Shown: one piece after another, positions 13,458 to 42,000 of the stretch | How positions within the stretch are numbered: position 1 is the first letter of the stretch | How the letters are laid out: every line of letters starts with the position of its first letter | Assembly: GCA_043804895.1 (NCBI GenBank) | Contig: JAZDIN010000024.1 | Span: forward strand, 1,888-65,887 | DNA: 64,000 nt | DNA from: Candidatus Altiarchaeota archaeon | Lineage (GTDB): Archaea > Altiarchaeota > Altiarchaeia > IMC4 > SCGC-AAA252-I15 | Direction: 5' to 3' | Notes under the pieces: model-generated | What the model was told of the DNA's origin: nothing | Seen by the model: the letters and a program-made list of their open reading frames with translations, nothing else | Databases searched by the model: none | Translations under genes and position numbers: made by a program

Positions 13458-14678
13458 ATGAAACTTGATTTTTTGCGCGGTTTATTGGGTTGGAGTAACG
13501 AGGTCACGTATGGTGGGCCATATTTGATTGAGTTTCGATTTTTTGGTTCTTCTCAGGATTTCGTTAGGGATTTGTGTCGCCATCTTTCCCATGAATTTGA
13601 AATTCGCCAGAACGCAAGAGGAGGTAGGCCTGCTCACATAACCCTTTATGGCGGTTTTGACACGAAGGATGAGGAGGAGATGATTAATAGATTCATGAGA
13701 GTCTGTAAAAGATGCGACTTGGTTGAGTACACAGTAAGTGGAGTTAGCCATATTGGAGATAAAGTCATCTCCTTGGATGTTTCCCCATCGGATGAATTAA
13801 AGCAATTAAGAGAAGAGTTAGCTAGAGAGCTGAATCCAATATGCTCAGCTCGTCAATGGGATAAACCAGGTGGAGAATTCATCTTCCACACAACCCTTGC
13901 TAACCATATTGAACGAAAAATTGATAAGCTCTGGGAGTACCTTAAAAACCTTAAAACACCAAAAATCAGGGAGTACGTGATACGGATAACATTATTAAAA
14001 AATGGCATGATACTACGTGAATATGACCTTATCCAAAGACGACGCCTAAACAGGAGAGAGGCCCTGAACCAAAGAACATATGCTGAAGACATTAGATTCA
14101 TCAAAGAGTTTAAACAAAATGGTGGGAAGAGGACTAGCCATGTTTTAGGATACGACCCTAAATCAAAAGATAAACTCTACCTAATATCAGACTTGCATTT
14201 AGACCATACAAATATAATCAAGTATTGTAAGAGACCGTTCAAAGATGTAAATGAGATGAATGATACGCTTGTTGAAAATTGGAATAAGACGGTAAAACCC
14301 AACGATAATGTGATATTCCTCGGGGACCTATCGTATGGCCGTGAAAGTAGAGGTGCGGAATATTGGTTGCCCAGGCTTAATGGGAAAATTCGGTTTATTG
14401 AGGGGAACCATGAGGACGTGCATGGAGTTAGTGTAAAGACATACCCACCAGCACATAATGTATTTCTCAGGTATGGAGAACAAGAATTCCTCTTAACACA
14501 CGACCCAGCAATAAAACCACTGGGATGGGAAGGGTGGACGATACATGGGCATAAACACAACAACGATTTGAAGAACTTTCCATTTATCAACAAGGATGAA
14601 AAGACAATTAATGTTAGTGTTGAAACGATTGAGTACAAACCAATTAGTATGAATGTGTTGGTTGATAGACTTGCATGA
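13458..14678 (+). CDS. Fusion protein: N-terminal 2H phosphoesterase (LigT-like) plus C-terminal calcineurin-like metallophosphoesterase
   Basis: Two HxT motifs (AHITLYG and FHTTLANH) lie in the first ~190 aa. They are followed by LISDLHLDH, RPF, FLGDLSYG, IEGNHED, LLTHDP and IHGHKH. The gene is clearly AT-richer than its flanks. Confidence 0.65.
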   Translation: MKLDFLRGLLGWSNEVTYGGPYLIEFRFFGSSQDFVRDLCRHLSHEFEIRQNARGGRPAHITLYGGFDTKDEEEMINRFMRVCKRCDLVEYTVSGVSHIGDKVISLDVSPSDELKQLREELARELNPICSARQWDKPGGEFIFHTTLANHIERKIDKLWEYLKNLKTPKIREYVIRITLLKNGMILREYDLIQRRRLNRREALNQRTYAEDIRFIKEFKQNGGKRTSHVLGYDPKSKDKLYLISDLHLDHTNIIKYCKRPFKDVNEMNDTLVENWNKTVKPNDNVIFLGDLSYGRESRGAEYWLPRLNGKIRFIEGNHEDVHGVSVKTYPPAHNVFLRYGEQEFLLTHDPAIKPLGWEGWTIHGHKHNNDLKNFPFINKDEKTINVSVETIEYKPISMNVLVDRLA

Positions 14679-14729: not shown

Positions 14730-15146
14730 ATGAGGTATTATGTCGACACTAACGTTTGGCGCGATTTCCTCGAGTCCCGGGAGGATAACCTCAGACCCCT
14801 AGGGGAGTATGCTTTCCAATTCTTAAAGCATGCAATGTTGTCGAAGGAGAGGATACTATACTCTGACTTTGTCGTTGAGGAATTGATGGTAGAACACTCT
14901 GCTAAGGATATTGAGAAGTTATGTTTCGAGCCCATCAAAGATGCTGGTCTCTTGGAGAGGGTTGAGCTAACTCGGATCCAGATTGATGAGGCTGTCAGGA
15001 TTGCTCGACAGCGGAATGTTCCGAGAGGCGATGCACTACATGCAGTGCTAGCTAGGGATAACCAGGCGGTGTGTGTCACAAGAGATAAACACTTCGAATT
15101 GCTCAAGGACATTGTGGAATCCAAGATGCCTGAAGAGCTTATTTGA
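14730..15146 (+). CDS. PIN-domain protein (VapC-like ribonuclease toxin)
   Basis: MRYYVDTNVWRDFL at the N-terminus and DALHAVLARDNQAVCVTRDKHF at the C-terminus fit the PIN acidic-residue pattern. Confidence 0.75.
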   Translation: MRYYVDTNVWRDFLESREDNLRPLGEYAFQFLKHAMLSKERILYSDFVVEELMVEHSAKDIEKLCFEPIKDAGLLERVELTRIQIDEAVRIARQRNVPRGDALHAVLARDNQAVCVTRDKHFELLKDIVESKMPEELI

Positions 15147-15396
15147 ACCTGGAGGCGATTTTCTCGAAGGCCACTTCCCTCGCCGACTCGTATCCTCCAG
15201 CACTCGAATGCTTGATTTTAAGCGCTCCCTTGGACTTTTCAAGCTTAAGTATTGCCTGCTTCAGCCGGTATTCCTCGACCTTGTCCCGCAATGCGTTTCT
15301 TATGAACTCAGTCCTGCTGGAGAAGCCGAAGTCACTTGACAGGCCGTCCATCTGACTCAACAGGCCATCTTCCAACTTCAGTGTAATCATTTTCAT
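15139..15396 (-). CDS. Ribbon-helix-helix (CopG-like) DNA-binding protein
   Basis: ITLKLEDGLLSQMDGLSSDFGFSSRTEFIRNALRDKV fits a beta-strand/helix/helix RHH pattern. It is convergent with the PIN gene and overlaps it by 8 nt. Confidence 0.65.
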   Translation of the reverse strand: MKMITLKLEDGLLSQMDGLSSDFGFSSRTEFIRNALRDKVEEYRLKQAILKLEKSKGALKIKHSSAGGYESAREVAFEKIASRFK

Positions 15397-15475: not shown

Positions 15476-16354
15476 TCATATGCATGGTATCCACGGGTAT
15501 TTGTCTACGTAGCAGGGGTATGCGTTGTAGCAGTTCGCGAACTTTGATACCGCAAACCAGTAGATGTCGGCGCTGCTGTAGCAGTACGCCCCCTTCAATG
15601 CTGTACCAAGGAGGCATGTGTACCGGAATGGGTTGTACCACCCGTAATTTTTGCAGCTTTTTTCTGAGGGGTGGATTTTATTCACGCATATTTGGTCCAG
15701 TTCTTTGCTGAACTCCTCGTCGCAGGATTCTTTCGCATCCAAGGTCATTGCGCATTGGCTGTAGCATCTGTCGTGGCCGTAGCATGCCGGGTTGAAGTCT
15801 ATGCCTGAACCCGGCGGACCCCGGGGGATTACGGCCATCACCCAGGGGCGGTTTTCCGGGCCGCAGTATTTGCTTTTGTTGACGTAGGTCGGGTAGGGGG
15901 TGATATCCAGTTGTTCTATGTCACGCAGAGTTGTTGTCGTTATCGTAGTCCTTGTGGTGGTCGTGGGTCTGATTGTGGTCGACGTGGACGCTGTTGTGGT
16001 TGTAGTCCTTCGGGTGGTGGTGGTCGTCCTGCGGGTGGTAGTTGTCGTCCGGTGAGTGGTGGTCGTCACCCGTTGGATGATGATTATCCTCCTTAAGGTG
16101 GTGGTCGTCGTCCTCTTTTTGGCGGTCGTCGTAGTGTAGAAACCCACGCAAGGGATCATATTGTCATCCTCGTCAAAGCATGTGTTGTAGCAGCCCCAAG
16201 GCAGCTGGTCTCCAGGGATATGTCTCCCATATTTAGGGCTTATACGCGTGCAATCAGTCGAATCGCCCAAAACAGCCTCTGACTGGGGAGCCAGCAGAAC
16301 AAGGATGAAGGCACAGCACAAGATAAGAGGAAACACATAATTCCAGTGTGCCAC
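15476..16354 (-). CDS. Secreted Cys-rich protein with a Thr/Arg-rich linker and a C-terminal phospholipase-A2-like motif
   Basis: GTG start preceded by AAGGAG. Signal peptide MAHWNYVFPLILCCAFILVLLAPQSEA. Linker of about 70 aa. The C-terminal domain has KYCGPEN ... NPACYGHDRCYSQC, resembling the Ca-loop and CxxHDxCY catalytic motif of secreted PLA2. The CDS is confident; the function is tentative. Confidence 0.45.
   Translation of the reverse strand: MAHWNYVFPLILCCAFILVLLAPQSEAVLGDSTDCTRISPKYGRHIPGDQLPWGCYNTCFDEDDNMIPCVGFYTTTTAKKRTTTTTLRRIIIIQRVTTTTHRTTTTTRRTTTTTRRTTTTTASTSTTIRPTTTTRTTITTTTLRDIEQLDITPYPTYVNKSKYCGPENRPWVMAVIPRGPPGSGIDFNPACYGHDRCYSQCAMTLDAKESCDEEFSKELDQICVNKIHPSEKSCKNYGWYNPFRYTCLLGTALKGAYCYSSADIYWFAVSKFANCYNAYPCYVDKYPWIPCI
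15929..16135 (-). repeat. Imperfect in-frame tandem repeats encoding (T)4-5-R-R units
   Basis: TTTTHRTTTTTRRTTTTTRRTTTTT, with a period of about 21 nt on the coding strand. Confidence 0.7.
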
Positions 16355-16469
16355 ATTACTCCTTTTTATTGCTTATTAAAGAACCTCCCAGTATAGGTAG
16401 ATTACGCTTCTGTGCCCTGTTTCACTTTAAGCCTAGTATCTTAGCGACTTCCTGTTCGCTGTAGAATTT

Positions 16470-16718
16470 TTATTGTTGGTCTTTGTGGTAGATTTCCAGG
16501 AATATTATTTTGTTTTCAGGCTGCAGGTATGCGTATGAGAGGCGGTAGGGTTGGACGTACACTTCCCTTGTGCCTTTCCTGGAGTGTCTCATCGGCTTTC
16601 CGACTTCAGGATTTTCCAGTATCTTCTCAACCTGTTTGACTACCCTCTCCTTGAACGCCTGGTCCTTTATCTTCCCGATTTTCTTCAGGAAGTCGTTCTT
16701 ATAGTCGACGGTCAGCAT
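16470..16718 (-). CDS. RelE/ParE-family toxin
   Basis: 82 aa with GKPMRHSRKGTREVYVQPYRLSYAYLQPENKIIFLEIYHKD. It overlaps the upstream antitoxin gene by 7 nt. Confidence 0.7.
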   Translation of the reverse strand: MLTVDYKNDFLKKIGKIKDQAFKERVVKQVEKILENPEVGKPMRHSRKGTREVYVQPYRLSYAYLQPENKIIFLEIYHKDQQ

Positions 16719-16978
16719 GACCTGAGCTCCCTTAGGAAATCGTCTTTTGACTTGGACTCGAATTTCCCGGAGTCGTATTCAAGCCAGGCTTTCTCGACCT
16801 TTTCGGCGAAGACGAGGTCGTCTTTGATGCCGGAGGCTAAGTCCAGCATGTTCTTGAGGATAATCCGCCCGTCATGTTTTACCATTAGGAACTCGTCACC
16901 GGCGTGGATGCCCTTCCTCAGGCCGCTTGGGATGACAATCTGTCCTTTGGTGCTTACTTTCGCTATCGCATACTCCAT
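16712..16978 (-). CDS. AbrB/SpoVT (MazE-like) antitoxin
   Basis: MEYAIAKVSTKGQIVIPSGLRKGIHAGDEF is a looped-hinge-helix signature. ATG 16978 is preceded by AGGTGA. The listed GTG 16987 is probably over-extended. Confidence 0.7.
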   Translation of the reverse strand: MEYAIAKVSTKGQIVIPSGLRKGIHAGDEFLMVKHDGRIILKNMLDLASGIKDDLVFAEKVEKAWLEYDSGKFESKSKDDFLRELRSC

Positions 16979-17092
16979 GTTATTCACCTATGTAAGTTAT
17001 AGCTTACTTGCGTATAAATACGCGCTTACTCCGCCCCTCACAGGGGTACTACTACCGTTTAATGTACTGTTTTTTAAGGTCGTATCGGCCGG

Positions 17093-19150
17093 ATGTTAAC
17101 CGGGATGGTTGGGTCGTTAGTGTCTCTGGCGTTAGTCTCGCTGATGCTGCCTGGCGGATACAACATAAACCTTGAGGTCTCAAACAGCACGTTCATGAAG
17201 CTCGCCTTGTATGATGACACGGCCGAGGCCTGGAATCAGCGGACTGTGGATGCATTCAACGCCAACAGGACGTACACGGTTGAGAGGGGCACGTGCTCGA
17301 ACACGACTGCGGATAATCCGGCAGAATCCTACGGGGGCCGTATCGGCGGGACAGGGAACCTGAGGTTGGATGGGGTGAATGTATCGTCTGAAATATTCAC
17401 AGACGGTTGTGGGGTAATCTACGCCGCTGAGCCTACATACTATGAAGGTAGCCGGAACCGGACGTGGGTTGAGGAGGGTGTGCTGTCCCTCTACGTAGGC
17501 CAAGGCTGCACCAGCCGGGAAGTCAACGGCACATGGGACAATCTCGAGATGGGAGTGCCCGGGACTGGGAGGCATAAGGAATATCTCCTGCCGGTGGTGG
17601 AGGAGACTGTAGTGCTGGCCGACGGAGGAGTCTGCTATAATGAGACGGTGGTGCACGGTTCCGGAGGATTTCCAGAATCGGTCGATACAGTGAAGGTCAT
17701 TCAGGTCAACTGCTCAGTCAACGGCTCGGACACTATCATCAGACTCGAACACACCTGCCGCGGATACGTCCTATTGGACAGCGCATACCTTGTAATGGGT
17801 TGGGTGAAGCGGTGCGACAGAGAGAGGTATATGAAGAACTGTCTTGAGGGTTGCAGCGCAGCGAACGCGGCAGGCTCCAAAAGCACTGGAGGGGGAGGCG
17901 GCACTGGAGGCTCATGCGACGGGGGATGCTGCAGGTCAGTGTGCACAAACCAGGCGAACCACAAGTGCAGGGAGGATGAGAGCGAGAATGCCGTGTGCCC
18001 TGATGTGCCGTCCGGGCAATACGGCAGCCCATATGATGGTTCGAGCGAGTACTTCATCGGTAAGCCTGGGGACAGTCACCCTGACCCCTGCTACTGCCAC
18101 CACCTTTTGGATGCTTCCAACATTTGCATGAACAACCGCGTCAGCCTCGCAGCATCCCAGGGTTACGAGTGCACTGATGTGAGGGAGTACACGATTGAGA
18201 TTAAGCCGAGGCTCACATGCAACGGGAGCTACTTTAAGTCAGGAGATTTTGGCCAAGGTTACCTTAGCCTAGAAGTCGAGCCTGACGTTGCGACAGCCTT
18301 CATCGTCGGCGACATACCCTACCGTTTCCAGACGTTCGCACCAAGGCACATACTCTATGGGACTGTTGAGGCTGTAAAATATTACAGTCTCGCAGACGGA
18401 GACTACAGGATTAACGAGTCGCATGAGGACAGCGGCTACTTCGACTTCGCATACTATGAGACAGTAGAGAACAAGTATCCTCCGAGGGTTGGAGAAGGGA
18501 TAGTATTGGATGAGGTCTCAGGAGGAAACGGGAGTTACAGGACGGGGTTCGCAGTCTCCGATGCTGGGAGAATAGGGAACCTGACTCTGACTGTGCTTAC
18601 GGTCGGGGACAGGATAGGTGGGGGGAGGGAATGCGACTTCGGGAACCCGTGCCCTGAGGGGATCTTCTGCATGGACGGAAGATGCCTTAACTTGGGTGAA
18701 GTAGAAAACCAGACTGTGAGATTCAGCGAATGCCTCACAGAGGCTAAGCAGGTGAACATCACGTTGAGTGTTCCTGATATTGTCGGCGAACGCTCGAGTG
18801 CGACTGCACTTGTGACGTTGAGTGCTGGTGGGCCGCTACCGGGCCGGACTGTGTCGTTCGGCTGCTGGGGCTGGCGGCAGAATGCGACGACCGATGGTGG
18901 CGGCAGAGCGTCTTTCACGTTCACTAGTGGGGTCGGCGCCAGCCTTTGCACCGCATCATATGGTGGGGATTATCAGTACAGTCCGGCGACGGCGGAAAAA
19001 TGGGTTCACACCGCCGCAAGAGGACCGGACTTTCGCATCTGGCTGATGTTCATTGCGCTCCTCCTTGTTATCGCCATCATATTCACTGCAGCATCGGGAG
19101 GGCGCACAATCTACGACGTGTATGAGACGCTGCGGGGGTTCATGAGATGA
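17093..19150 (+). CDS. Large Cys-rich, sequon-rich surface protein with a C-terminal membrane anchor
   Basis: N-terminal hydrophobic segment, at least a dozen N-x-S/T sequons by eye, a Gly/Cys cluster GGGGGTGGSCDGGCC, and a C-terminal TM IWLMFIALLLVIAIIFTAA. Confidence 0.6.
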   Translation: MLTGMVGSLVSLALVSLMLPGGYNINLEVSNSTFMKLALYDDTAEAWNQRTVDAFNANRTYTVERGTCSNTTADNPAESYGGRIGGTGNLRLDGVNVSSEIFTDGCGVIYAAEPTYYEGSRNRTWVEEGVLSLYVGQGCTSREVNGTWDNLEMGVPGTGRHKEYLLPVVEETVVLADGGVCYNETVVHGSGGFPESVDTVKVIQVNCSVNGSDTIIRLEHTCRGYVLLDSAYLVMGWVKRCDRERYMKNCLEGCSAANAAGSKSTGGGGGTGGSCDGGCCRSVCTNQANHKCREDESENAVCPDVPSGQYGSPYDGSSEYFIGKPGDSHPDPCYCHHLLDASNICMNNRVSLAASQGYECTDVREYTIEIKPRLTCNGSYFKSGDFGQGYLSLEVEPDVATAFIVGDIPYRFQTFAPRHILYGTVEAVKYYSLADGDYRINESHEDSGYFDFAYYETVENKYPPRVGEGIVLDEVSGGNGSYRTGFAVSDAGRIGNLTLTVLTVGDRIGGGRECDFGNPCPEGIFCMDGRCLNLGEVENQTVRFSECLTEAKQVNITLSVPDIVGERSSATALVTLSAGGPLPGRTVSFGCWGWRQNATTDGGGRASFTFTSGVGASLCTASYGGDYQYSPATAEKWVHTAARGPDFRIWLMFIALLLVIAIIFTAASGGRTIYDVYETLRGFMR

Positions 19151-20742
19151 TGAGGAAGATTTCGGTTATCCTGCTTTTGGCTTCGCCTGCTTCGGCCATC
19201 GGGGAGAACATGTTCCAGGGGGTCTACGATTTCATGACTAGCCTCATAACACTCAACCTCAAGGACACCCTGAGGATGATCGCTCAGAACATGGCGGCGA
19301 AGCCTGACCTTGCGAAATGGCCTATCATGTCCGGCATGCACGACAGCTTCACATGGCTTTCAGGTTTCTTCATGCTTGCGATGACGTTCCATGGGGTCAA
19401 GTACATTATGTCGGCTGACAGCCCCGGGGGGAGGGCGAACTCTAAGGCTGCGGTCGAGAAGCTGATTGTTGGGATGGTTATCGTCTCCTTCAACGGGCTC
19501 ATATTCAGTTTAGGCCTTGACTTCTCCTCAGCGTTGACCGACGCCTTCGTGGGCGGCGTGAACGCTAACGAGAACGCGCTAGCGAAGGTAGTGATGTTGA
19601 GCACGATATCACTGGCGTGCATCATCACGCCAGTCGGCTTATTGGCCGCGCTCCTCCTGCTGTTCATGTTCCTCGCCAGGTACCTCATCCTGATACTGCT
19701 TTGGGCGTTCTTCCCGCTGATTTTCGCCTTCTATTTCAGCCAGCTGGGCTTCCTGGCGAGGATTGGGGCGAGGGGCGTGAACCTGTTCATATCAGCGATA
19801 CTCGCTGGGCCTGTGATGGGTTTCATTTTCAAGGTAAGCTATGAGCTCCTCTTGGCTGCGGCTGAGGGGGTAACGTCGGGGCAGCAGCTCGCGGTCAACG
19901 GGTTCGAACCGTTCGTAGCCCTATTCGCAGCCCTTGCAGGATTCCTCCTTGCAGGATTCAGTCCGCTCGTAACGCTCGGGCTCGTGGATAGGATGGGGGC
20001 GATTGCTCAGGTCGCAGGCACTGTGCTTGGGGCGGCAGGCGGTGGGGCATTGGGTGCTGCAGTAGGGGGAGCGGCAGGGAAAGTGGTCACATCAGCCTCA
20101 GGGGAAGCCAAAGACGCTGCAGGGGATGTCGTAGGGCAGGGGGTCGGAGGGAACATGAAAGGGGATATATTGGACGCTGGTAAGGCTGCTGAAGACGGTT
20201 TGAAGAGGAGCGCTGTGAAGGTCGCGGCAACGCAGGACTACGACGCTAGCACGACAGAGGGTAAGCTGAAGTTTATGAAGGCCGTGCTACAGGAGTATGA
20301 TTGGCTGAATGAGGAGGGGGTGATAAGAGAGGACAACAGGAGTAGGATTAACGTCGGAGACGGAGGGAAGTACATCGCCAAAGGCACGAACCTCCTCAGC
20401 GGCCACTTCGAGTATGAGGTCCCCCATGGGCGTGGATTCGGCGACAGCCTGAGCAGGGAGGCAGCTGAAAAGCAGGGCCTGATTTCTGATGGGAAGATTC
20501 TGATGAAAAACGCGGTCCGAGGAAGCTACGGCGGGTACACCGTAACGGTGAACGACGGGGGCAGCAACCTTTATAATGTCGCAGTCCAGGGGGAGGAGAA
20601 GACGACGGTGATGACTGTGGAGAAAACCGTAGGACTTGGCAGTGGAGAGGAGGTGATACGGAGGATAATAGAAGAATCGCAGGAGAATGATGAAACGCCG
20701 GATAAGGTACTCAGCAGGATAAGGTATAGGGGTAGAGATTAG
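19147..20742 (+). CDS. Polytopic membrane protein, VirB6/TrbL-like architecture (tentative)
   Basis: Start overlaps the upstream stop (ATGA). Signal-like N-terminus, at least six hydrophobic spans, a Gly/Ala tract GAAGGGALGAAVGGAAG, and a hydrophilic C-terminal domain of about 180 aa. The call rests on architecture only. Confidence 0.35.
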   Translation: MMRKISVILLLASPASAIGENMFQGVYDFMTSLITLNLKDTLRMIAQNMAAKPDLAKWPIMSGMHDSFTWLSGFFMLAMTFHGVKYIMSADSPGGRANSKAAVEKLIVGMVIVSFNGLIFSLGLDFSSALTDAFVGGVNANENALAKVVMLSTISLACIITPVGLLAALLLLFMFLARYLILILLWAFFPLIFAFYFSQLGFLARIGARGVNLFISAILAGPVMGFIFKVSYELLLAAAEGVTSGQQLAVNGFEPFVALFAALAGFLLAGFSPLVTLGLVDRMGAIAQVAGTVLGAAGGGALGAAVGGAAGKVVTSASGEAKDAAGDVVGQGVGGNMKGDILDAGKAAEDGLKRSAVKVAATQDYDASTTEGKLKFMKAVLQEYDWLNEEGVIREDNRSRINVGDGGKYIAKGTNLLSGHFEYEVPHGRGFGDSLSREAAEKQGLISDGKILMKNAVRGSYGGYTVTVNDGGSNLYNVAVQGEEKTTVMTVEKTVGLGSGEEVIRRIIEESQENDETPDKVLSRIRYRGRD

Positions 20743-20754
20743 CTGTGGGAGGAT

Positions 20755-21264
20755 TCATCTGCCTCCGCGTTTCTTCATCTGTATCCCGAGGTCCAGAAGC
20801 TGCTTCTGGTAGTTTGAGACTATCATCTTGAAGCTCTTCTCCTCAAGTTCGCCGGCGTAGTAGCGCTCCTCTGCCTTCCTTATGAGCTCCTGGGTTTTCT
20901 TCCTCTGGGCCTCCAGCTCGTCCAAGCGCGGCTCCTGTTTAGGGGGAGTCTTCTCCTCGTCCTCCCTTTTTTGGATAACATTCTCCCTCTCCTTAAGCTC
21001 CTTCACCCGCTCAGCCTTAAGCCTCGCTTCACGTTCCCCCAGTTCCTTCTCGGTGCGGGCGAGCCTCTGCGGCTCGGATTCCTGTCTGGGGGGAGGCTTA
21101 GCAACTTCCACCTCATTCTTTTCCTGCGGCTCCGTTATCGGCTCCTCAGCCAAGACCTCCTCAGCCGCCCTTTTTTTGAGTATTTCCCTTATTATCAGGG
21201 CTACTAGGGCGGCTATTGCCAATAGTCCGGCAACGATTAGGGCATCCAATACGCTGTCATCCAT
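20755..21264 (-). CDS. Membrane-anchored coiled-coil protein
   Basis: ATG 21264 (MDDSVLDALIVAGLLAIAALVALII) followed by E/K/R/P-rich coiled coil. The listed GTG 21273 adds 3 aa. Confidence 0.55.
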   Translation of the reverse strand: MDDSVLDALIVAGLLAIAALVALIIREILKKRAAEEVLAEEPITEPQEKNEVEVAKPPPRQESEPQRLARTEKELGEREARLKAERVKELKERENVIQKREDEEKTPPKQEPRLDELEAQRKKTQELIRKAEERYYAGELEEKSFKMIVSNYQKQLLDLGIQMKKRGGR

Positions 21265-21366
21265 TACAAACACGCGAAGGTCTCCTGCCTCACGTTTGCA
21301 CCTCTTGTGTTTGTTTTGCTTGTCTGCATTTTGAGCGTGTCACAGCGGAGGCTTTGCCTCCGGTGT
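21264..21366 (-). repeat. Shared upstream leader module, copy A (partner at 29285..29392)
   Basis: Read on the minus strand: ACAC, a 6-bp hairpin, GCTCAAAATGC, AAGCAAAA, GAGGT, then CGCGTRTTTGTA-ATG. The same order and spacing occur in copy B. Confidence 0.6.
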
Positions 21367-21494
21367 GTGTCCGAGACATCAGTCTCGGCCACATTGTGAG
21401 TAATACCGCACCCAGGGTGCGGTATTTGATATTGTTTTCCCTTGGACTCAGGGCATATATCATTTATATCCAGTATAATATATGTTACCTGAAA

Positions 21495-23063
21495 ATGCGG
21501 CCTTATTTTGCTGTTTGGGTGGTTTTGCTGCTTGCAGGTTATGCTATAGCAGAGGACTCATGCAAAGTCGAGGTGTTGGATGATGCTAAGGGGATGCACG
21601 CCGTCGTAGAAGCCTGCGACAACATAGGAACATACTCGCTTGGGGGCCTTTACGACGGGCAGTGGACTAAGCTGACTTTCCAGTACCCTGAGCCGTGGGC
21701 TGGTACGTTCACGACGTTCGACATAGACGGCGAATATTTTTGCACCTCGAAGGACGGCAGAAACTGCACCATCATGGACGGGTATGTTTCTGAGAAGCCT
21801 AAGGCTGACGGGGCCGAAGTTGCTACCTCTTGGAATCTCCCGAGGGTCAGCGTAACGCAATCACTAAACATCATAGAAAACAGGACATTGATAAGATACT
21901 CAGTCCACAACACCGACGCGGAAAGCCATAAGGTCGGCATACGCCTCCACTTGGACACGATGTTGGGCGTGAACGATGGGGCGCCGATTTACGTGCCAGG
22001 CGACGGGCTGAAGACTGAGGAGGTTGAGTACAGCGGAGCCGGGCTCAACTTCGGCTACTGGAAGGTGTATAACACCCCTGACAACCCGACCATCGTCGCC
22101 ACCGGGACGATAGATCCGAACGATGGGATGACGTATCCTACGAGGGTCGTCGTGGCAGACTGGAAGAGGAGCAAGGACACTGCATGGGATTACAATGTTG
22201 AAGGTAGGCCCATCACCGGGGACAGCGCAGTCATACTGTACTTCGACCTCGGCGTCATCGACGCCGGTGGTGAGGCGGCTTTCGAGACAGGCATCGGGAG
22301 CGATGCTCCTGTGTTGAGTGAGGAGCAGGGCACCCTGGGTTTGACCGAGATTGTGCTTAGCAACATATCCGGGGTATATTGCCCTGGGGATGACGTAACA
22401 TTAAAGGTTGATGTGCTTAGCGCTGGAGTGCCAAGGAGTGGCTCAGTAGCCTTGAACGTCGAGAAGGACGGGAAGGTCTACTACAGCAATACCCAGAACG
22501 CAGCCCTGCCCAAGGACACGATAGTCAGCCTAGTGTACAATTGGAAAATCCAAGACGACAAGGAGGGAGGCTACACCGTGAAGGCATGGTTGTACAACGA
22601 CACTGGAGTTGTCGACTATAAGGAGAAACCAAACGCCGTCATTGTGAGTGAGACGCAGTGCGTGAACCGAGTGCTGGAAGTGGGCGGAGGGATAGTGGGG
22701 GGTTTCCTGTTCATAGCAGTCATCGTCTCGATAGGCCTTGCCATGGCCGCCGGATTCTACCTGTGGTTCAACCGAGGCAGCGTCGAGTTCACGAAATACG
22801 TTGACGGCGAATACGTCAAAGTCACAGTCCTCAACAACACTCAGAAGACGATACACGATATCGTCATAGAGGATACAATACCACCGGAAGTTGAGCTGAA
22901 GGTGCGGACGTTGAACGTCATCAGAAGACAGAACATGCTGGAATGGAGCATTGGTAAGTTGAGGCCGAAGGAGAGCGCGACCCTCGACTATTACGTTAAG
23001 GGAGGCCGTGCTGTGAGCAGCTCTTCAGTCAGGTGGGATAGGGGGGGCAAGAGCCTGGCATGA
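21495..23063 (+). CDS. Secreted or membrane protein with a DUF11-like conserved-repeat domain after the C-terminal TM
   Basis: ATG 21495 (MRPYFAVWVVLLLAGYAIA). TM segment GGFLFIAVIVSIGLAMAAGFYLWF. The tail VTVLNNTQKTIHDIVIEDTIPPEV ... LEWSIGKLRPKESATLDYYV matches the DUF11-type pattern. The listed start 21216 is over-extended. Confidence 0.55.
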   Translation: MRPYFAVWVVLLLAGYAIAEDSCKVEVLDDAKGMHAVVEACDNIGTYSLGGLYDGQWTKLTFQYPEPWAGTFTTFDIDGEYFCTSKDGRNCTIMDGYVSEKPKADGAEVATSWNLPRVSVTQSLNIIENRTLIRYSVHNTDAESHKVGIRLHLDTMLGVNDGAPIYVPGDGLKTEEVEYSGAGLNFGYWKVYNTPDNPTIVATGTIDPNDGMTYPTRVVVADWKRSKDTAWDYNVEGRPITGDSAVILYFDLGVIDAGGEAAFETGIGSDAPVLSEEQGTLGLTEIVLSNISGVYCPGDDVTLKVDVLSAGVPRSGSVALNVEKDGKVYYSNTQNAALPKDTIVSLVYNWKIQDDKEGGYTVKAWLYNDTGVVDYKEKPNAVIVSETQCVNRVLEVGGGIVGGFLFIAVIVSIGLAMAAGFYLWFNRGSVEFTKYVDGEYVKVTVLNNTQKTIHDIVIEDTIPPEVELKVRTLNVIRRQNMLEWSIGKLRPKESATLDYYVKGGRAVSSSSVRWDRGGKSLA

Positions 23064-25293: not shown

Positions 25294-25326
25294 AAGCATA
25301 TAACCACCACCAGGTAATTGTTTAAC

Positions 25327-26019
25327 ATGAGGCTTGCCGCGTCAGTCATACTCCTAGTGCTACTCTCAGGCTGCACGATGCTCCCATGCAATCCACCTAT
25401 GAAACGCATCGGAGGCGAATGCTGCCTAGACGGAGACAACAACCAGGTGTGCGACAAAAACGAGGCTGGAAACGAAGCAGACAAAGAATGCGAGCCACCC
25501 TACATCCTAAGCAGTGGGGAATGCTGCCTTGACACCAACGGAAACGGGGCCTGCGACACGGAAGAGACGACGGAGAACCGCCCCCAAGCAGCGGCCCAAG
25601 TCATTAATCCGACCACCACAACGCAACAGCCGACCACAACGACACAAAATACGAACCCGACCACAACATCCACGGCGACCACTAGCACGGTGAGAGTATA
25701 CCAGACGCCCACAACACTACCCGTCTGCTTCGACACAGACGGGGGAGAATCACCCAACCTCGCCGGAGTCACAAGCGGATTATACAGAGCCCCACCCCAC
25801 GGCCTGACAAGCTCGGCAGACTACTGCCTTAATAACGTCAGCGTTAGGGAATACCGCTGCGAAGGCGACCTAGTATACGGCAGGGACATACTGTGCAAAA
25901 GCCAGGAGACGTGCGTAAAAGGCAGATGCTGCCTCCCATCAGGAGTGAAATGCAGCTCCAGCACAGAATGTTGCAACAAAGAATGCATAAAAAAACAATA
26001 CATAGGATTGTGCTATTGA
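25327..26019 (+). CDS. Cys-rich lipoprotein with a Thr-rich linker and a knottin-like C-terminal cysteine framework
   Basis: MRLAASVILLVLLSGC lipobox. Duplicated GECCLD..N..CD units. Linker PTTTTQQPTTTTQNTNPTTTSTATTST. C-terminus CLPSGVKCSSSTECCNKECIKKQYIGLCY. Confidence 0.6.
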   Translation: MRLAASVILLVLLSGCTMLPCNPPMKRIGGECCLDGDNNQVCDKNEAGNEADKECEPPYILSSGECCLDTNGNGACDTEETTENRPQAAAQVINPTTTTQQPTTTTQNTNPTTTSTATTSTVRVYQTPTTLPVCFDTDGGESPNLAGVTSGLYRAPPHGLTSSADYCLNNVSVREYRCEGDLVYGRDILCKSQETCVKGRCCLPSGVKCSSSTECCNKECIKKQYIGLCY

Positions 26020-36151: not shown

Positions 36152-37483
36152 ATGATACACCCAATCGAAGGCAGGTACGGCCGCAAGGAGGTTAAGGCCA
36201 TCTTCGAGGAGGAGAACAAGCTCCAGAGGATGCTGGATGTTGAGGCTGCCCTCGCGAGGGCTCATGCTAGGGTAGGGGACATCCCGAAGAAGGACGGTAA
36301 CGTCATAACGCTGAAGGCGAACGTCAAGCATGTGAAGTTGGAGGCTGTTAAGGAGATTGAGGCTGAGATAAATCATGACGTCATGGCTGTTGTTAAGGCG
36401 TTGAGTAAAGAGTGCGGGTATTCAGGCAAGTACGTTCATCTTGGGGCGACAAGCAACGACATCACGGACACTGCGTTGGCTTTGCAGCTTAAGGATTACA
36501 TCAAGTATCTTGGAGAGGGTTTGGCTGAGTTGAGGGATGAGCTTGCCAGGAAGGCGAGGGAGCACATCAAGACCGTCTGCATCGGCAGGACCCACGCCCA
36601 ACATGCTGTCCCGACCACGTACGGACTCAAGTTCGCGATATACGCCATGGAGGTGGACAGGCACATCCAGAGGCTGGATGAGGTGAAGGGGAGGATTCTC
36701 GTTGGGAAGATGAGCGGAGCTGTTGGGACGCAGGCTGCGCTTGGTAGGAATGCTATCGCGATACAGGAGCATGTGATGGAGCAGTTGGGTCTCGGGTGCG
36801 TTGAGGTCTCAAATCAGGTGGTGCAGCGTGACAGGCACGCTGAGTTCATGATGCTATTAGCCCTCATAGCCGAGACCTTGAACAAGTTAGCGACTGAGGT
36901 GAGGAACCTCCAGAGGACTGAGATAGACGAGGTCAGGGAGGGGTTCGGTAAGAAGCAGGTCGGCTCCTCGACGATGCCGCATAAGATGAATCCGATACAC
37001 GCTGAGAGGATTTGTGGGGTGTCTAGGGTCATCAAGGCGGATGCTATGGCGTCGCTGGAGAACATCGCACTATGGCATGAGAGGGACCTCACGAACTCAA
37101 GCTGCGAGCGCATTATAATACCCGAATCATGCATACTCACAGATTACATTCTGCGTTTGAGCATCGACCTTGTCAGGAATCTTGTCTTCAACATGGAGAA
37201 CATCAGAAGGAACCTTGACATGACCCAGGGGAGAATCATGGCAGAGTCTGTGATGATGAGGATGGTTGGGAAGGGTTACGGCAGGCAGGAGGCCCATGAG
37301 GTCGTGAGGGAGTGCGCTCTCGAAAGCTACAGAAAGGGGAGGCCGTTGAAGGACATGCTGATGGGCAACGCTACTGTGAGGAAGCATCTGAGTGAGGCTG
37401 AGATTGACGATGCACTCAACCCCGGGAAGTACATAGGTACTGCGGAGGAGCAGGTCAGAGCAGCCCTCAAAAAGTTTTCCTGA
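36152..37483 (+). CDS. purB: Adenylosuccinate lyase
   Basis: MIHPIEGRYG at the start and the fumarate-lyase signature GSSTMPHKMNP. Confidence 0.9.
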   Translation: MIHPIEGRYGRKEVKAIFEEENKLQRMLDVEAALARAHARVGDIPKKDGNVITLKANVKHVKLEAVKEIEAEINHDVMAVVKALSKECGYSGKYVHLGATSNDITDTALALQLKDYIKYLGEGLAELRDELARKAREHIKTVCIGRTHAQHAVPTTYGLKFAIYAMEVDRHIQRLDEVKGRILVGKMSGAVGTQAALGRNAIAIQEHVMEQLGLGCVEVSNQVVQRDRHAEFMMLLALIAETLNKLATEVRNLQRTEIDEVREGFGKKQVGSSTMPHKMNPIHAERICGVSRVIKADAMASLENIALWHERDLTNSSCERIIIPESCILTDYILRLSIDLVRNLVFNMENIRRNLDMTQGRIMAESVMMRMVGKGYGRQEAHEVVRECALESYRKGRPLKDMLMGNATVRKHLSEAEIDDALNPGKYIGTAEEQVRAALKKFS

Positions 37484-38384
37484 TTAGGTCGTCTATCAGG
37501 TGGTCTGCGCTGAATCCGAAGTTCTTGCTGTCCTGGTTCATCACAAGCCTGTGCCTGAGTATCGGGTGGGCTAGTTCGACAACGTCTTGTGTGGTTGCCT
37601 GCCGCCCCCCCATGAGGAATGCCCTGGTTTTCACAGCCTTTGTGTAAAGTACTGTCGCCCTCGTGCTAGCCCCTGCCACGACCTCTTTCCTAGCCCTTGA
37701 CGCTGCTGCTAATGCGATTATGGAGTCTATGACCCCGTCGGGAACGTCGATTTCGGACTTTATGCGCTCCTGTATGGCGAGCACTTCAGCTGGTGTAAAT
37801 AGTTTGCTCACCTTAACTGAGCTGACGCTCGACTTTATCGCCTCCCTCTCATCGTCAGGGGTGAGGTAGGTCATGTGCGATTTCAGTAGGAACCGGTCCT
37901 GCTGCGCTTCGGGCAGTGGGTAGGTGCCCTCACACTCTATCGGGTTCTGGGTCGCGATGACGAAGAAGGGCTCTGGGAGGATGTGAGTCTGCCCGGCAAC
38001 TGTCACGCTCCTTTCTGACATCGCCTCAAGGAACGCTGACTGCGTCTTAGGTTGGGCGCGGTTTATCTCATCGACGAGTAGCACGTTGGTGAACAGCGGA
38101 CCAGCCCCGAAGAACCTGCCTCCCAACTCCTCGTCAGAGTACATGTCGCCTATGATGTCACGGGGAGCTAGGTCTGGGGTGCATTGTATCCGCTTGAATG
38201 CCATATCCATTATCTCAGCTATCGTCCTTGCCATCAGGGTCTTCCCGAGGCCTGGGGGGCTTTCGATGAGTATGTGCCCTGATGAGAGGATGCATATGAG
38301 TATGTCTTCTATGACGTCTTTGTTTCCGATTACCCTCCTTCCTATCTCCCTGCGCATGAGGTCTATCCTCTCGTGTTCCTTCAT
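37467..38384 (-). CDS. MoxR-family AAA+ ATPase
   Basis: ATG 38384 (MKEHERIDLMRREI) shares ATGA with the upstream stop. ESPPGLGKT, LLVDEINRAQPKTQSAFLEAM. The listed start 38582 is over-extended. Confidence 0.85.
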   Translation of the reverse strand: MKEHERIDLMRREIGRRVIGNKDVIEDILICILSSGHILIESPPGLGKTLMARTIAEIMDMAFKRIQCTPDLAPRDIIGDMYSDEELGGRFFGAGPLFTNVLLVDEINRAQPKTQSAFLEAMSERSVTVAGQTHILPEPFFVIATQNPIECEGTYPLPEAQQDRFLLKSHMTYLTPDDEREAIKSSVSSVKVSKLFTPAEVLAIQERIKSEIDVPDGVIDSIIALAAASRARKEVVAGASTRATVLYTKAVKTRAFLMGGRQATTQDVVELAHPILRHRLVMNQDSKNFGFSADHLIDDLIRKTF

Positions 38385-39091
38385 AGTATCACCTTCCTTG
38401 CCGTGACCCTCCATTCTGCGGAGTTCATGCAGGGTATCCCGTATTGTTTGCACGTGCGGCGTATGTTCTCCGAGTCGGAGAGGACTACGCTTGGAGTCTC
38501 CCTTGCGATTGCCACGCTCGCGTAGGGTGTGTCGTCGTTGTTGGCTTCCGCTTTGACGAACACCTGCGTCTTTGCGCCGCACACCTCCACCTCGCCCAAT
38601 CCCTTCAAATCCAACGCTGAGCGAGCCTCAGGCCATATCTCACGAGGGACGCACACGAAACCGAACACCGTATGTAGCGCCTTAACGTCCTCGCAGGTCA
38701 CGGCCTCGATGAAGTCCATCTCAGCTACCGCACTGCACGCTCCGAGCGCGATGCTATCATACTCCACATTCTTAGGTTCGGCCTTCCATTCCACTCTACA
38801 CACTGAAGATGCACGGCTCCCAGGATTTTTTGGTGCTGTCCTCCTTTGATCGTTTCCTGTCGATTTTGATTTTTCGACCAACTGGTTTTTGATTGCCTGA
38901 GTCTCGTCGAGGTCGTTTGGTTGGTCGGCAGGCTGGCTTAGCACGAGCTGGGATATTTTAAAGCGGCAGGTTAGGTTCAGGCTGAGGGAGGCAACCGCCA
39001 ATATGGCGAAGGATAGGATGAGTGTCCTCTCATCATGTCCGAGCATTCCCAAGTATCCTGCGAACTTCCCTACTAAGTCAGTCATCCCCAA
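38381..39091 (-). CDS. Membrane-anchored protein with a possible PIN-like C-terminal domain
   Basis: TM segment LILSFAILAVASLSLNL. The C-terminal domain has VEYDSIALG near its start and VVLSDSENIRRTCKQYGIPC near its end, which is a weak PIN-like pattern. Confidence 0.35.
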   Translation of the reverse strand: MGMTDLVGKFAGYLGMLGHDERTLILSFAILAVASLSLNLTCRFKISQLVLSQPADQPNDLDETQAIKNQLVEKSKSTGNDQRRTAPKNPGSRASSVCRVEWKAEPKNVEYDSIALGACSAVAEMDFIEAVTCEDVKALHTVFGFVCVPREIWPEARSALDLKGLGEVEVCGAKTQVFVKAEANNDDTPYASVAIARETPSVVLSDSENIRRTCKQYGIPCMNSAEWRVTARKVIL

Positions 39092-42000
39092 CCCTTGCCG
39101 GAAAAAGACTCCTCAGCGCGGACTTGACTTCATAAGCCATGATGACGTTGCCGTATCCGCCTGCAACGAGAGCATCCCTTACGCCCTCAGTCAAGGCGAT
39201 GAGTATGAGCGAGGTGTTCCCAATGGCAGCTTCGATTTTCCTTTGTAGCCCGTCCAATTCCTTCATCGTCAGGACCTCCACAGCTATCATCCTCCCGTTT
39301 GGTAGCTTTGCTGTGACGTCAGGCATCACCCGCTCATGCATCCTGACTGTCATCTCATCGTCAGTTAGGCCGAGCCTGAATCTCACGCTCTCAAGGTACT
39401 TGAATATGAGGAACTTGCGCAGGAAGTGGATGGTATCCTCTGAGTCTGGCTTTTTGACGTAGTATACTTTCCTGTCATCCCGGCTTAATCCGATGTCCGC
39501 AACCTCCACGTACCCCTCACTCTTAAGCCTTTTCAGGTCCGCCTCCTTCAGGACTTCTCGCGGGAGGACCGGATCTCTGCTGGCGTCGAACATTAGGTTC
39601 GTTGTGGTCTGCGGTCGCGTCATCTCAAAAGTAATCCTCTCTTCCGGGCTGGTGGAGAGCATCCGCTTCTCGTACTCGCTTGCTAGGACGAATAGGGGAA
39701 TCTTCACTGACGGCGTGAGCATGAGGACGTCGCCTGTGCCGGCGTTCTGGAGGAACATCCTCTGGTTCTCGGTCAAGGCGAAGCTATCGGCTATCATCCT
39801 CAACCCAACAGCCTCCTGCCTGAGGAGGAATTTCGTAGATGTGTTGTTCAGTATCACATGGCCGCGCGGCATCCCTGTTGCGTCCTTTGACAGTAGGTCT
39901 TCGACGTTCTGGTCTATTATGACGACGCTCAGGTTCTCTTTCCTGCCGGTCCGGACTATGGGCCCGAGGTAGTCCTGGTTGTTCTCGAACACGCTCCATG
40001 CCTCGTCCACGAGTATCATCTTCCGCTTCTCCCTCCTGTGTTTGGCTACCCATGAGCGGATGTAGTCGAAGACGATGAAGAGGGCCATGGACCGCTCCAA
40101 TGGCTTGAAGGCTGTGGTTGAGGATATGTCGAAGCAGACTATGTTCTTGCCCTTAAGGTCCACCGTGGTCTCTTGGTTGAGGTATCTGAGGTCGCCTGAG
40201 ACGAGGGGGGTGATGTAGCTTAGGAGGGCTTCAGCTGTGACCTTCTTCCATGACTCAGCCCTGGAATTCGAATCTGAGGCGAACTGGTTGAGAGCCTCAT
40301 AAACGCTTGTGAATGTCGGTGGCGTTTTACCCCAGGTGCTATCATCGTCCGGATATATCCCCGCCTTCCTGTATGCGTTGTCTATCATCCTGTCCACTAT
40401 GCCTGATGCTGCACCTGACAGCCGCTCGTCCATGTTCCCCCTGAGTATGTTGAAGAACGCCTTAACGCTACCCTTGCGGCCATCGTAGGTGTCGTTGCCG
40501 AGGTCGAATATGTTGATTGTCGACTTTGAGTCGTGACTGAGCCGTATCACCTGTCCGCCCATCTTCTCAACCAGCTTCCCGTATTCCCCCTGGGGGTCTA
40601 TGACGAACATGTCGACGTCGTGCATGGCTTCGGAGAGGAAGAGCTTTTTCACGAGGAAGGACTTCCCGGAGCCTGAGCTTCCGAGCACCAGTATGTGGGG
40701 GTTAGGTTGCGTGAACACATCCAGTAGCACCGGTATGCCGTTGAGCTGGTTGTATCCTACGACGACTGCTCCGTCGCCTGCGTCCGCCAGGCAGCTGAGT
40801 ATGAACGGGTAGGAGTCCCTGACCGCGCTTGAGGGGAATAGCCTGTCGCGGCGCTCCCCCAGCTTGTCCTCAGCCAGCGGGTAGCAGCTTTTCAATGCGT
40901 CCTCCATCTCCCAGTTAGCGACCCTCACCTGCGCGTTCATCCCCTCCAACACGTCCTTGATTCGCATCACAGCCAAGTCGAGTTCCTTCTGCCCGTAGGC
41001 TTTGACGTTAACGTACAGCGCGACGTCGAAGCACTTCTCCTCGTCCCTTGATACACGGTTCAGAAGTTCCTTCACCTTCTGGAGGTTCACCCTGTCCTTC
41101 TCGGAGACTAGGAGGCATTCACGCTCCCTTGTCGTCACGTCAGTCTCGAGCTTCGTAATCTCATGCTGGAGGTAGTCGACGCTTGTCTTCTGGCTCAGGG
41201 GATGCATGTGGAAGACTATGTCAAAGTCTATGGGCTGCCTTATCAGCTTCGTCAGCCAACCGGGGTGGACGACAGCCGGGAACCGGACCGTGAACAGCAC
41301 CCTGTGGAGTTTCTCCACCTCAGCATGGCTCTTGTGGAAGTCGAGTGAGGGGGGCATAAGCTGCTCAACAACGAATGATTTGCGGTCTGATGTGTTGCGG
41401 ACGTAGTCAAGGCCGGCCTGCTCGAATCTCGCCTGCAGGCGCTCATCGTACATGGGGGCGAACGGATCCAATGAGTTTCCGAATCTCTTGAGCATCTCTT
41501 TCGCCTCTGACATCGCCTCCATGCCGTTGTGGAAGGTTAGTGGGCTGAACGCGCCTGAAGTGAGTTTGAACCTCGGGTTGTAGAAGTTGGCGTAGAACCT
41601 TATCAGGTCTTCTGTCTTAAGCCTCTCGCAGTCTATGCCTGAGTCCCTTAGGCTTGCCATCAGGTTTCTCGTCTTAGCATCAAGGTCCACCATCGCCTTC
41701 TTCAGCTGCCCACCCATGGGCTGGGTGATGATGATGTAGTAGTCGCGGTCAGTCACAGTCTTTGAGGTGACGACGCCGCGCAGGAAATCTGCGAAGTGTT
41801 CGAAGTAGCTCATGCGCTCGGTTTTTCCGCCAAGAAGCACCTTCTCCTTCAGCCTCTGCAGGTAGCCTTCGACGTCTATCTCCGTCGATGACATGATTAT
41901 CTGGATGTTGGTGCTGAGCTCATGGAGGAAGGTTCCGTATCCTGCAAGCACCTTCTCTATGTCAGATTCGCTGAGGCTTGCCAAGTCCTTCGGCATCACC

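Follow-up and report, generated by a model that had tools for sequence, protein, structure and literature searches.

Sequence evidence for a divergent member of the secreted phospholipase A2 superfamily on a modular, predicted exported protein of Altiarchaeota

Group XIV phospholipases A2 (PLA2s; PF09056), represented by the structures 1faz/1lwb, Tuber borchii TbSP1 (4aup), 8k1w, and 7ygk, are secreted microbial enzymes of actinomycetes and fungi, with few cysteines and two disulfides. According to an excerpt of PMC11525133, they have a catalytic His/Asp dyad, an important Asp beside the His, and a three-helix catalytic core. Group XII PLA2s (PF06951) and the conodipine-type enzymes of molluscs and cone snails carry a C-x-x-H-D-x-C-Y helix and a C-D motif. 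This pair of motifs is nearer to animal secreted PLA2s, and group XIV enzymes lack the second Cys. Among archaea, cinquedea of Haloferax larsenii is a secreted phospholipase that, in the excerpted text of the preprint describing it, kills bacteria experimentally; its authors argue there that ether lipids confer self-immunity, and they give scavenging as an equally open role (bioRxiv 10.64898/2026.06.10.730825). Here we describe a gene in a stretch of 64,000 nucleotides (hereafter, the window) from a Candidatus Altiarchaeota archaeon (assembly GCA_043804895.1, contig JAZDIN010000024.1, positions 1,888 to 65,887 of the forward strand), whose predicted product ends in a Cys-rich, PLA2-like domain. 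An earlier note on this DNA, a model's reading of the letters, had taken the product for a secreted PLA2-like effector; sequence homology and conserved catalytic residues uphold the PLA2-like part of that reading, whereas the match of fold is not significant by itself. Overall, we consider it reasonably probable, judging from the sequence, that this is an exported modular protein of Altiarchaeota whose C-terminal His/Asp PLA2 acts on foreign ester lipids.

The prokaryotic PLA2 (PF09056) and group XII PLA2 (PF06951) families are the only Pfam families that the protein matches at E ≤ 10. The first match has an E-value of 1.2e-4, with the domain scoring 23.1 bits and the complete protein 20.3 against a curated cut-off of 29.4, and the second an E-value of 1.8e-3, with 18.7 bits against a cut-off of 34 and an alignment confined to the His-Asp helix region (profile positions 101-132 of 184). 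The expected resemblance to PLA2 profiles was therefore found in kind, with no other family matched, but not in degree, with both scores under the curated cut-offs. The best phmmer match among PDB sequences was 1faz, the PLA2 of Streptomyces violaceoruber, at E 0.016. A word-indexed search returned three homologues at 54-56% identity, and each of the three closest homologues matches PLA2 families independently. A phmmer search of 1.8 billion representatives yielded 87 relatives at E ≤ 1e-3, including 21 at E ≤ 1e-10 and 5 at E ≤ 1e-30; two of the 87, P0019 and P0032, are repeat or Ig proteins aligned through many weak stretches, and were treated as spurious and excluded from the alignments and the tree. 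When the first 44 of the 87 were scanned with Pfam, 27 matched a PLA2 family at E ≤ 0.01 and 17 did not, and nine lay above a curated PLA2 cut-off, five for PF09056 (P0029, P0038, P0039, P0041, and P0050) and four for PF06951 (P0037, P0043, P0044, and P0048). The phmmer matches that join the query to these validated proteins have E-values of 1e-8 to 1e-5 in that library.

Profiles built from the family point in the same direction. PF06951 is the family matched by most of the 33 aligned members at E ≤ 0.1 (14 members), followed by PF09056 (13), PF08398 (four), and PF05826 (one). The four PF08398 matches, to the parvovirus VP1u-type PLA2, are weak (E 0.05-0.1) and span the Y-x-G-P loop and the HD helix; the parvovirus motif resembles the start of such a loop, the viral domains lack cysteines there, and their context is unrelated to that of the window protein. 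Searched against the PDB, the 33-sequence profile gave four matches at E ≤ 1, all of them microbial PLA2s (1faz, 2e-4; 8k1w, 2.9e-4; 7ygk, 4.7e-4; 4aup, 0.065), and a profile of the 18-sequence close clade gave three matches at E ≤ 10, again all PLA2. Alignment of this clade with the nine Pfam-validated proteins by hhalign reached 99.7% probability and E 2.6e-26 over 107 columns, which start at the CGP loop, take in the HD and CD helices, and end with the final C..A..Y..AV helix. Helices 2 and 3 of the close clade are separated by an insert of some 21 residues (WYNPFRY-C) that is missing from the validated PLA2s. The Pfam scores of these nine proteins are independent of the query. In addition, the nearest neighbours in a language-model Atlas are PLA2 clusters at 0.83-0.84, including a conodipine cluster at 0.83, which serves as a lead only. 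Taken at the level of sequence, the resemblance to PLA2 seen in the Pfam families, the PDB profile matches, and the profile-profile alignment is beyond chance, and it supports placing the C-terminal domain within the His/Asp secreted PLA2 superfamily as a genuine though divergent member.

The residues expected to carry out catalysis are all conserved. In C-domain numbering (add 141 for the position in the full protein), C23, G24, F46, C50, H53, D54, C56, C70, D71, and C82 are invariant in all 33 aligned sequences, and Y22, P36, Y57, C60, F74, C117, V128, and C140 are conserved in at least 90% of them. The predicted catalytic His, its adjacent Asp, and the dyad Asp remain invariant in sequences down to 27% identity, and the pair of motifs C-x-x-H-D-x-C-Y ... 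C-D occurs in 97 of the 105 sequences examined. H53, D54, and D71 face H64, D65, and D85 of 1faz in the alignments. The motif C-Y-G-H-D-R-C-Y at residues 191-198, within NPACYGHDRCYSQC (residues 188-201), matches the C-C-x-x-H-D-x-C-Y-type motif of the superfamily, and the YCGPEN loop, within KYCGPEN (residues 162-168), aligns with the CGP loop of the Pfam-validated PLA2 proteins, with its Cys and Gly invariant. The earlier note had located the catalytic codons exactly, those of His194-Asp195 reading 15775..15770, and its spacing of about 30 residues between the two motifs was roughly right, as their starts lie 26 residues apart. Like group XIV enzymes, the window protein has the His-Asp pair, the dyad Asp farther on, a Cys three residues N-terminal to the His, and a predicted core of three helices; unlike them, it falls under the PF09056 cut-off, has 12 cysteines in the domain, carries the clade insert, has a YCGPE loop at the site of Asp43-Leu44 in 1faz, and belongs to an archaeal host in which the domain is joined to a Thr-rich stalk and variable N-terminal modules. 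With group XII enzymes it shares the C-x-x-H-D-x-C-Y helix and the C-D motif. The invariant Cys pairs presumably correspond to the core disulfides 29-45 (loop-helix) and 51-98 (helix-helix) of pancreatic PLA2.

An AlphaFold2 model of the C-terminal domain, made from the 33-sequence alignment, has a predicted local distance difference test score (pLDDT) of 86.9 and a predicted template modelling score (pTM) of 0.80. It contains three long helices (C-domain residues 47-63, 67-94, and 101-134), with His53 and Asp54 on the first and Asp71 on the second. Foldseek placed 1faz, 4aup_B, and 4aup_A in the top three positions, at E 0.64-0.71, and VIA-align over 48,161 chains placed 4aup_B first (Z 7.9, root-mean-square deviation [rmsd] 5.2, 95 residues aligned, 23% identity). 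In the same comparison, 1faz (Z 6.8, rmsd 4.6, 90 aligned, 24% identity) and 8k1w (Z 6.1, 24% identity) were found, and the other helical rows have identities of 4-8%. Group XIV enzymes are the nearest solved structures by both sequence profile (E 2e-4 to 0.065) and fold rank. The anticipated likeness of an AlphaFold model to PLA2 folds was thus obtained in the ranking, where PLA2 structures come first, but not in significance (Z 7.9; Foldseek E 0.64-0.71), and the evidence from the predicted fold agrees with that from sequence and would not stand alone. The Atlas model of the whole protein is poor (pTM 0.43).

The layout of the protein and the coordinates of its features are collected in the table below. 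Segmentation of the open reading frame (ORF) confirmed the layout already claimed for it, namely a hydrophobic N-terminus, a Cys-rich N-domain, a Thr/Arg linker of about 70 residues, and a Cys-rich C-domain. The first 27 residues hold the sole strongly hydrophobic 15-mer of the protein, VFPLILCCAFILVLL, with a mean Kyte-Doolittle value of 3.15. The public gene call (P0002, 264 aa) begins at Leu29 (TTG) and is therefore without this hydrophobic N-terminus. However, the three closest homologues and most Altiarchaeota homologues open with a classical signal peptide or a lipobox-like sequence, and because of this the longer GTG start is favoured; beginning at the GTG at 16354, which has GGAG 4 nt 5' of it, gives back an N-terminus that looks like a signal peptide, as in the homologues. 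Export by way of a signal peptide is accordingly predicted, on the strength of the hydrophobic N-terminus and of the classical signal peptides that the homologues carry. The Thr-rich linker, for part of which the DNA is a 21-nt tandem repeat (15996..16067), may be O-glycosylated. No Pfam family was matched at E ≤ 10 by residues 1-63, which cover most of the 4-Cys module, and neither the protein nor its three closest homologues had a relevant match in NCBIfam. Scans for promoters, terminators, and composition around the gene gave nothing above chance level.

Coordinates, in window positions, of the PLA2-like gene, its parts, and neighbouring genes
Feature	Position	Strand	Remarks
Whole PLA2-like gene	15476..16354	-	292 codons and a TGA stop; GTG start
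GGAG, 4 nt 5' of the GTG	16359..16362	-	possible ribosome-binding site, putative function
Residues 1-27, putative Sec signal peptide	16274..16354	-	hydrophobic core at residues 7-21, followed by PQSEA
Residues 28-73, small acidic 4-Cys module (46 aa)	16136..16273	-	fold not recognised; no Pfam match for residues 1-63 at E ≤ 10; unrelated modules take its place in homologues
Residues 74-142, Thr/Arg-rich linker (69 aa)	15929..16135	-	41 Thr, 11 Arg, 2 Lys
Residues 143-292, 12-Cys PLA2-superfamily domain (150 aa)	15479..15928	-	three predicted long helices
Tyr163-Cys164-Gly165 of YCGPEN	15860..15868	-	candidate Ca2+ loop; Cys and Gly invariant, Tyr at least 90%
His194-Asp195 in C-Y-G-H-D-R-C-Y	15770..15775	-	predicted catalytic His and adjacent Asp; invariant 33/33
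Asp212 in C-D-E-E-F, next helix	15719..15721	-	predicted second member of the His/Asp dyad; invariant 33/33
ParE toxin gene	16470..16718	-	upstream of the PLA2-like gene; overlaps the AbrB/MazE-type gene
AbrB/MazE-type antitoxin gene	16712..16987	-	upstream of the PLA2-like gene
RHH gene	15139..15396	-	downstream of the PLA2-like gene
PIN gene	14730..15146	+	convergent with the RHH gene
685-aa Cys-rich protein	17093..19150		Big_3_5 Ig-like domain, hydrophobic C-terminus

The PLA2-like domain is patchily distributed within the phylum. It was found in 10 of 61 phylum genomes, many of them incomplete, with the host included and with up to three copies per genome; it occurs in 4/4 other species of the genus, in 8/20 other genomes of the family, and in 1/2 genomes of a second family, and in none of the 22 genomes of the largest family searched or of the 12 at class level. 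The window domain is 29-39% identical to those of its genus-mates, while its best genome match (45%) comes from another genus and unassigned metagenome proteins reach 49-57%. Records of the relatives read "hypothetical protein" of Candidatus Altiarchaeota or Altiarchaeales archaea.

In contrast to the conserved domain, the N-terminal parts of the members cannot be aligned with one another, consisting of Cys-rich modules, of beta-rich modules, or of only a lipobox-like signal, as in the small members L012 and L011 (SGC after the signal peptide). P0003-P0005, like several Altiarchaeota homologues, also have a Thr-rich linker before the PLA2 domain. In one Altiarchaeales genome of the same family (L001, 299..2664, equal to L007), two tandem PLA2-domain genes overlap by about 100 nt in different frames, each with its own large Cys-rich N-terminal region and one with a Thr-rich linker. 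Distant relatives are fused to RHS repeats (P0042), BACON (P0038), beta/gamma-crystallin (P0046), VWA (P0049), and CarboxypepD_reg/PEGA (P0011 and P0030) domains, so that exported proteins in metagenomes make wide use of the PLA2 unit as a module. Bacterial relatives occur in a Smithellaceae genome and a Thermoanaerobaculia genome, and a PLA2-domain protein of the mollusc Lottia gigantea is a direct phmmer match at E 3.2e-6.

A quick maximum-likelihood tree was made from 85 domain sequences. Apart from the two spurious proteins, it left out P0001/P0002 (the query itself), P0009 (a fragment), P0091-93, six duplicates, and rows with fewer than 55 query residues covered. A branch with 98% support parts the PF06951-passing proteins, together with two PF09056-passing proteins, from the half that holds the window protein; this position across the branch, besides the limited alignment and the low score, sets the window protein apart from group XII. 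All 10 Altiarchaeota-labelled sequences fall in one set of 31 rows, with weak support (SH-aLRT [Shimodaira-Hasegawa-like approximate likelihood ratio test] 81), and the window protein belongs to a subclade of six rows with 98% support.

The host genome comprises 1.58 Mb in 71 contigs and holds a single copy of the domain. The contig carries archaeal genes for a thermosome, RPA, OapB, HerA, and an ATP-dependent DNA ligase. A gene for geranylgeranylglyceryl phosphate (GGGP) synthase (PcrB, 182 bits) lies about 0.6 kb downstream of a glycerol-1-phosphate (G1P)-dehydrogenase-like Fe-ADH_2 gene, and PlsY was not found in the genome. An excerpt of PMC7242380 describes archaeol-based lipids for Altiarchaeota. 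The premise that this protein belongs to an ether-lipid archaeon is sustained by the archaeal genes, the ether-lipid backbone genes, and the Altiarchaeota kin, but its corollary that the producer has no ester lipids is slightly blurred by a match to a PlsC-like acyltransferase, to which we return below.

As for its surroundings, the gene lies between two type II toxin-antitoxin pairs, in a small accessory patch with core genes around it. The same RHH and PIN genes adjoin a different PLA2 paralogue in a genus-mate (L010), in another order. The toxin-antitoxin modules and other secreted Cys-rich proteins that had been placed nearby were recovered in the scan of window ORFs. The RHS toxin said to share the neighbourhood was not: 62 window ORFs searched at E ≤ 1e-3 yielded no RHS family, and neither did a looser search, at E ≤ 1, of 11 window ORFs (nine without a family and two with a weak one). 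A related PLA2-like domain does end an RHS-type protein elsewhere (P0042, with RHS and RHS_repeat matches and PF06951 at E 4.5e-7), and RHS-type polymorphic toxins resemble the window protein in their modular layout and conserved catalytic end; unlike them, the window protein lacks RHS and any recognised trafficking domain, and no candidate for an immunity gene adjoins it. Beside the PLA2-like gene no evident immunity-gene candidate was found, its neighbours being toxin-antitoxin genes of cytoplasmic type.

Farther out, a run of large exported proteins, mostly without any family along their length, occupies 17093..23063. It includes a 531-aa ORF that overlaps the gene of the 685-aa Cys-rich protein by 4 nt and has a weak T4SS_pilin match (E 0.0027), and a 615-aa protein with a DUF11 domain. 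A 233-aa ORF at 25318..26016 has a weak mucin-like (Thr/Ser-rich) match, and the exported proteins of the host genome may contain Thr-rich stretches quite generally. On the other side, directly after the thermosome gene, 13458..14678 encodes a protein of 406 aa in which a 2'-5' RNA ligase-superfamily domain (E 2.1e-18) is fused to a weak calcineurin-like phosphoesterase domain. A gene for a MoxR-type AAA ATPase and one for a 1088-aa TraG/VirB4-like P-loop protein lie within 37467..42344.

In the mechanism that we propose, a Sec-type signal peptide would export the protein, which would either be tethered or diffuse, with the enzyme borne on a Thr/Arg-rich, probably glycosylated stalk. His194, oriented by Asp212, would activate a water molecule, while Asp195 and the disulfide-tethered Tyr-Cys-Gly-Pro-Glu loop would hold Ca2+ and the phosphate and sn-2 carbonyl of the substrate; the sn-2 acyl ester of a diacyl-glycerophospholipid would then be cut to give a lysophospholipid and a fatty acid. 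The likely substrates would be membranes or lipid debris of bacteria, possibly of eukaryotes. They would be foreign because the membrane of the producer is built on ether-linked isoprenoid lipids, which offer no such ester, and the producer would not require an immunity protein. The variable N-terminal modules would probably determine the site at which the enzyme is retained or the partner to which it attaches. That the protein is secreted, glycosylated, Ca2+-dependent, and active is what we infer from its features, as is any choice of killing over scavenging or the reverse, and a role in interdomain attack, scavenging, or symbiosis may be envisaged on the same grounds. The patchy, multi-copy, module-swapping pattern leans toward a role in conflict.

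This logic, in which an exported phospholipase A cuts ester lipids while the ether lipids of the producer are immune, is like that of cinquedea as given in the excerpted preprint, and so is the patchy distribution. Unlike the window protein, cinquedea is there a PLA1-like alpha/beta hydrolase, with a serine-hydrolase fold, of Halobacteria, in a different phylum, whereas the window protein, known from its sequence, would be of the His/Asp, Ca2+ type (bioRxiv 10.64898/2026.06.10.730825). A stronger proposal, namely that a branch of Altiarchaeota has diversified a venom-type PLA2 warhead on exported, stalked, probably glycosylated proteins with swappable targeting modules, so as to lyse or harvest bacteria under the self-protection of ether lipids, is offered tentatively, as we hold it to be possible but rather doubtful; an immunity gene would then be unneeded because the ether-lipid membrane would protect the archaeon.

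Several observations weigh against an active PLA2 with a foreign substrate. Both single-sequence Pfam scores miss their curated cut-offs (23.1 against 29.4 bits and 18.7 against 34 bits), and the hhalign test is not fully independent because the nine validated proteins were recruited through the query. The candidate calcium loop reads Y-C-G-P-E-(N/G), in which the second Gly of the canonical Y/W-C-G-x-G is replaced by Glu. Asp43 and Leu44 of 1faz, which are calcium ligands, face Ala and Val in the phmmer alignment. With twelve extracellular cysteines in an organism that lives anaerobically, the formation of the disulfides also needs explaining. The structure alone does not prove the fold because none of the 234 Foldseek matches in the PDB reaches E ≤ 0.001, and no VIA-align match attains a Z of 8, with unrelated helical bundles coming next at Z 7.0. 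Moreover, the host genome is 88.7% complete, and some ester lipid in the producer is possible because of the weak match to a PlsC-type acyltransferase (PF01553, 26.4 bits against a cut-off of 23; G000:C47:11982-12413), a family matched in none of four archaeal control genomes.

Among the other explanations, the one that survives best keeps the same enzyme and makes it purely nutritional: it would digest free or dead-cell bacterial phospholipids in a biofilm or sediment, sparing living neighbours, and the archaeon would take up the fatty acids or lysolipids. The excerpt of the cinquedea preprint, whose authors leave scavenging equally open (bioRxiv 10.64898/2026.06.10.730825), lends it some weight, as do the lysolipids and the redistribution or hand-over of lipids between cells reported, in the excerpted text, from an Altiarchaeota-rich aquifer community (PMC7242380). 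Some use of fatty acids is conceivable because an acyl-CoA dehydrogenase (117 bits) occurs once in the host genome, which also gives a weak match of the 3-hydroxyacyl-CoA dehydrogenase type; however, 3HCDH_N is not specific, being present in 14 of 14 control genomes, and this support falls short of a complete beta-oxidation pathway. Patchiness, divergent paralogues, and swapped N-terminal modules are also what one would sooner expect of conflict genes than of an enzyme of core nutrition, and we consider a purely nutritional role unlikely, if well worth keeping in mind.

It is less probable still that the PLA2-fold domain is no longer a phospholipase and serves instead for binding or adhesion, as a disulfide-rich head carried by a glycosylated stalk, or as a non-lipid esterase. 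The non-canonical YCGPE loop, the insert of about 21 residues, and the failure to reach any curated cut-off would be in keeping with such a change, and the stalk-plus-head layout is like that of surface adhesins. However, the His, its adjacent Asp, and the dyad Asp are invariant in 33/33 sequences and the motif pair is nearly as constant (97/105). Catalytically dead PLA2-like proteins, for example the Lys49 myotoxins, typically lose catalytic residues.

An action on the envelope of the producer itself, on ester-bearing lipids or anchors made by the PlsC-like acyltransferase or in membrane or vesicle dynamics, appears highly improbable. The weak PlsC-like match (26.4 bits) would allow for it, and the lipobox-like members L012 and L011 would remain at the cell surface; however, ether-lipid genes are present and PlsY was not found in the genome, the Altiarchaeota lipids described so far are archaeol-based in the excerpted text of PMC7242380, and occurrence in 10/61 phylum genomes and 0/22 of the largest family misfits a housekeeping role. 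Finally, the distant bacterial (Smithellaceae and Thermoanaerobaculia loci) and animal (Lottia gigantea) relatives might suggest a bacterial or eukaryotic gene brought in by binning or assembly, but this is next to negligible as an explanation, with the gene inside a 64-kb stretch that carries thermosome, RPA, OapB, DNA ligase, and HerA genes, the domain present in 4/4 other genomes of the genus and 8/20 others of the family, and the Altiarchaeota sequences together in the tree.

Literature searches, with supplements outside their scope and priority not judged, returned no paper on a His/Asp-type secreted PLA2 of archaea. The "PLA2" activities known from Pyrococcus and Aeropyrum belong to esterase-type enzymes and not to the His/Asp PLA2 fold. 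These thermostable activities are mentioned in an excerpt of PMC4613230, and the occurrence of PLA2s in archaea is stated in one of PMC11811501, which cites Nevalainen et al. (2012). Because cinquedea is described in the excerpted preprint, the concept of an anti-bacterial archaeal phospholipase is known, and it is the His/Asp PLA2 fold that is new for this concept (bioRxiv 10.64898/2026.06.10.730825).

In Altiarchaeota, modular proteins predicted to be exported carry a 12-Cys, YCGPE-loop clade of the PLA2 superfamily. This clade enlarges an established enzyme family and adds to a concept published recently, without being the start of a new one, and it has escaped all curated Pfam models, with "hypothetical protein" as its label in public records. 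Archaeal ways of fighting or feeding on bacteria are barely known, cinquedea itself having been posted only in 2026 (bioRxiv 10.64898/2026.06.10.730825, as excerpted). The window gene provides a second, mechanistically distinct, and easily assayable candidate, and it comes from an uncultured phylum of dense mixed biofilms and aquifers. If the stronger proposal made above is true, the family would represent a second archaeal anti-bacterial phospholipase system, with a fold unrelated to that of cinquedea and the first in an uncultured subsurface lineage. The gene also offers a natural test of the lipid divide itself as an immunity mechanism.

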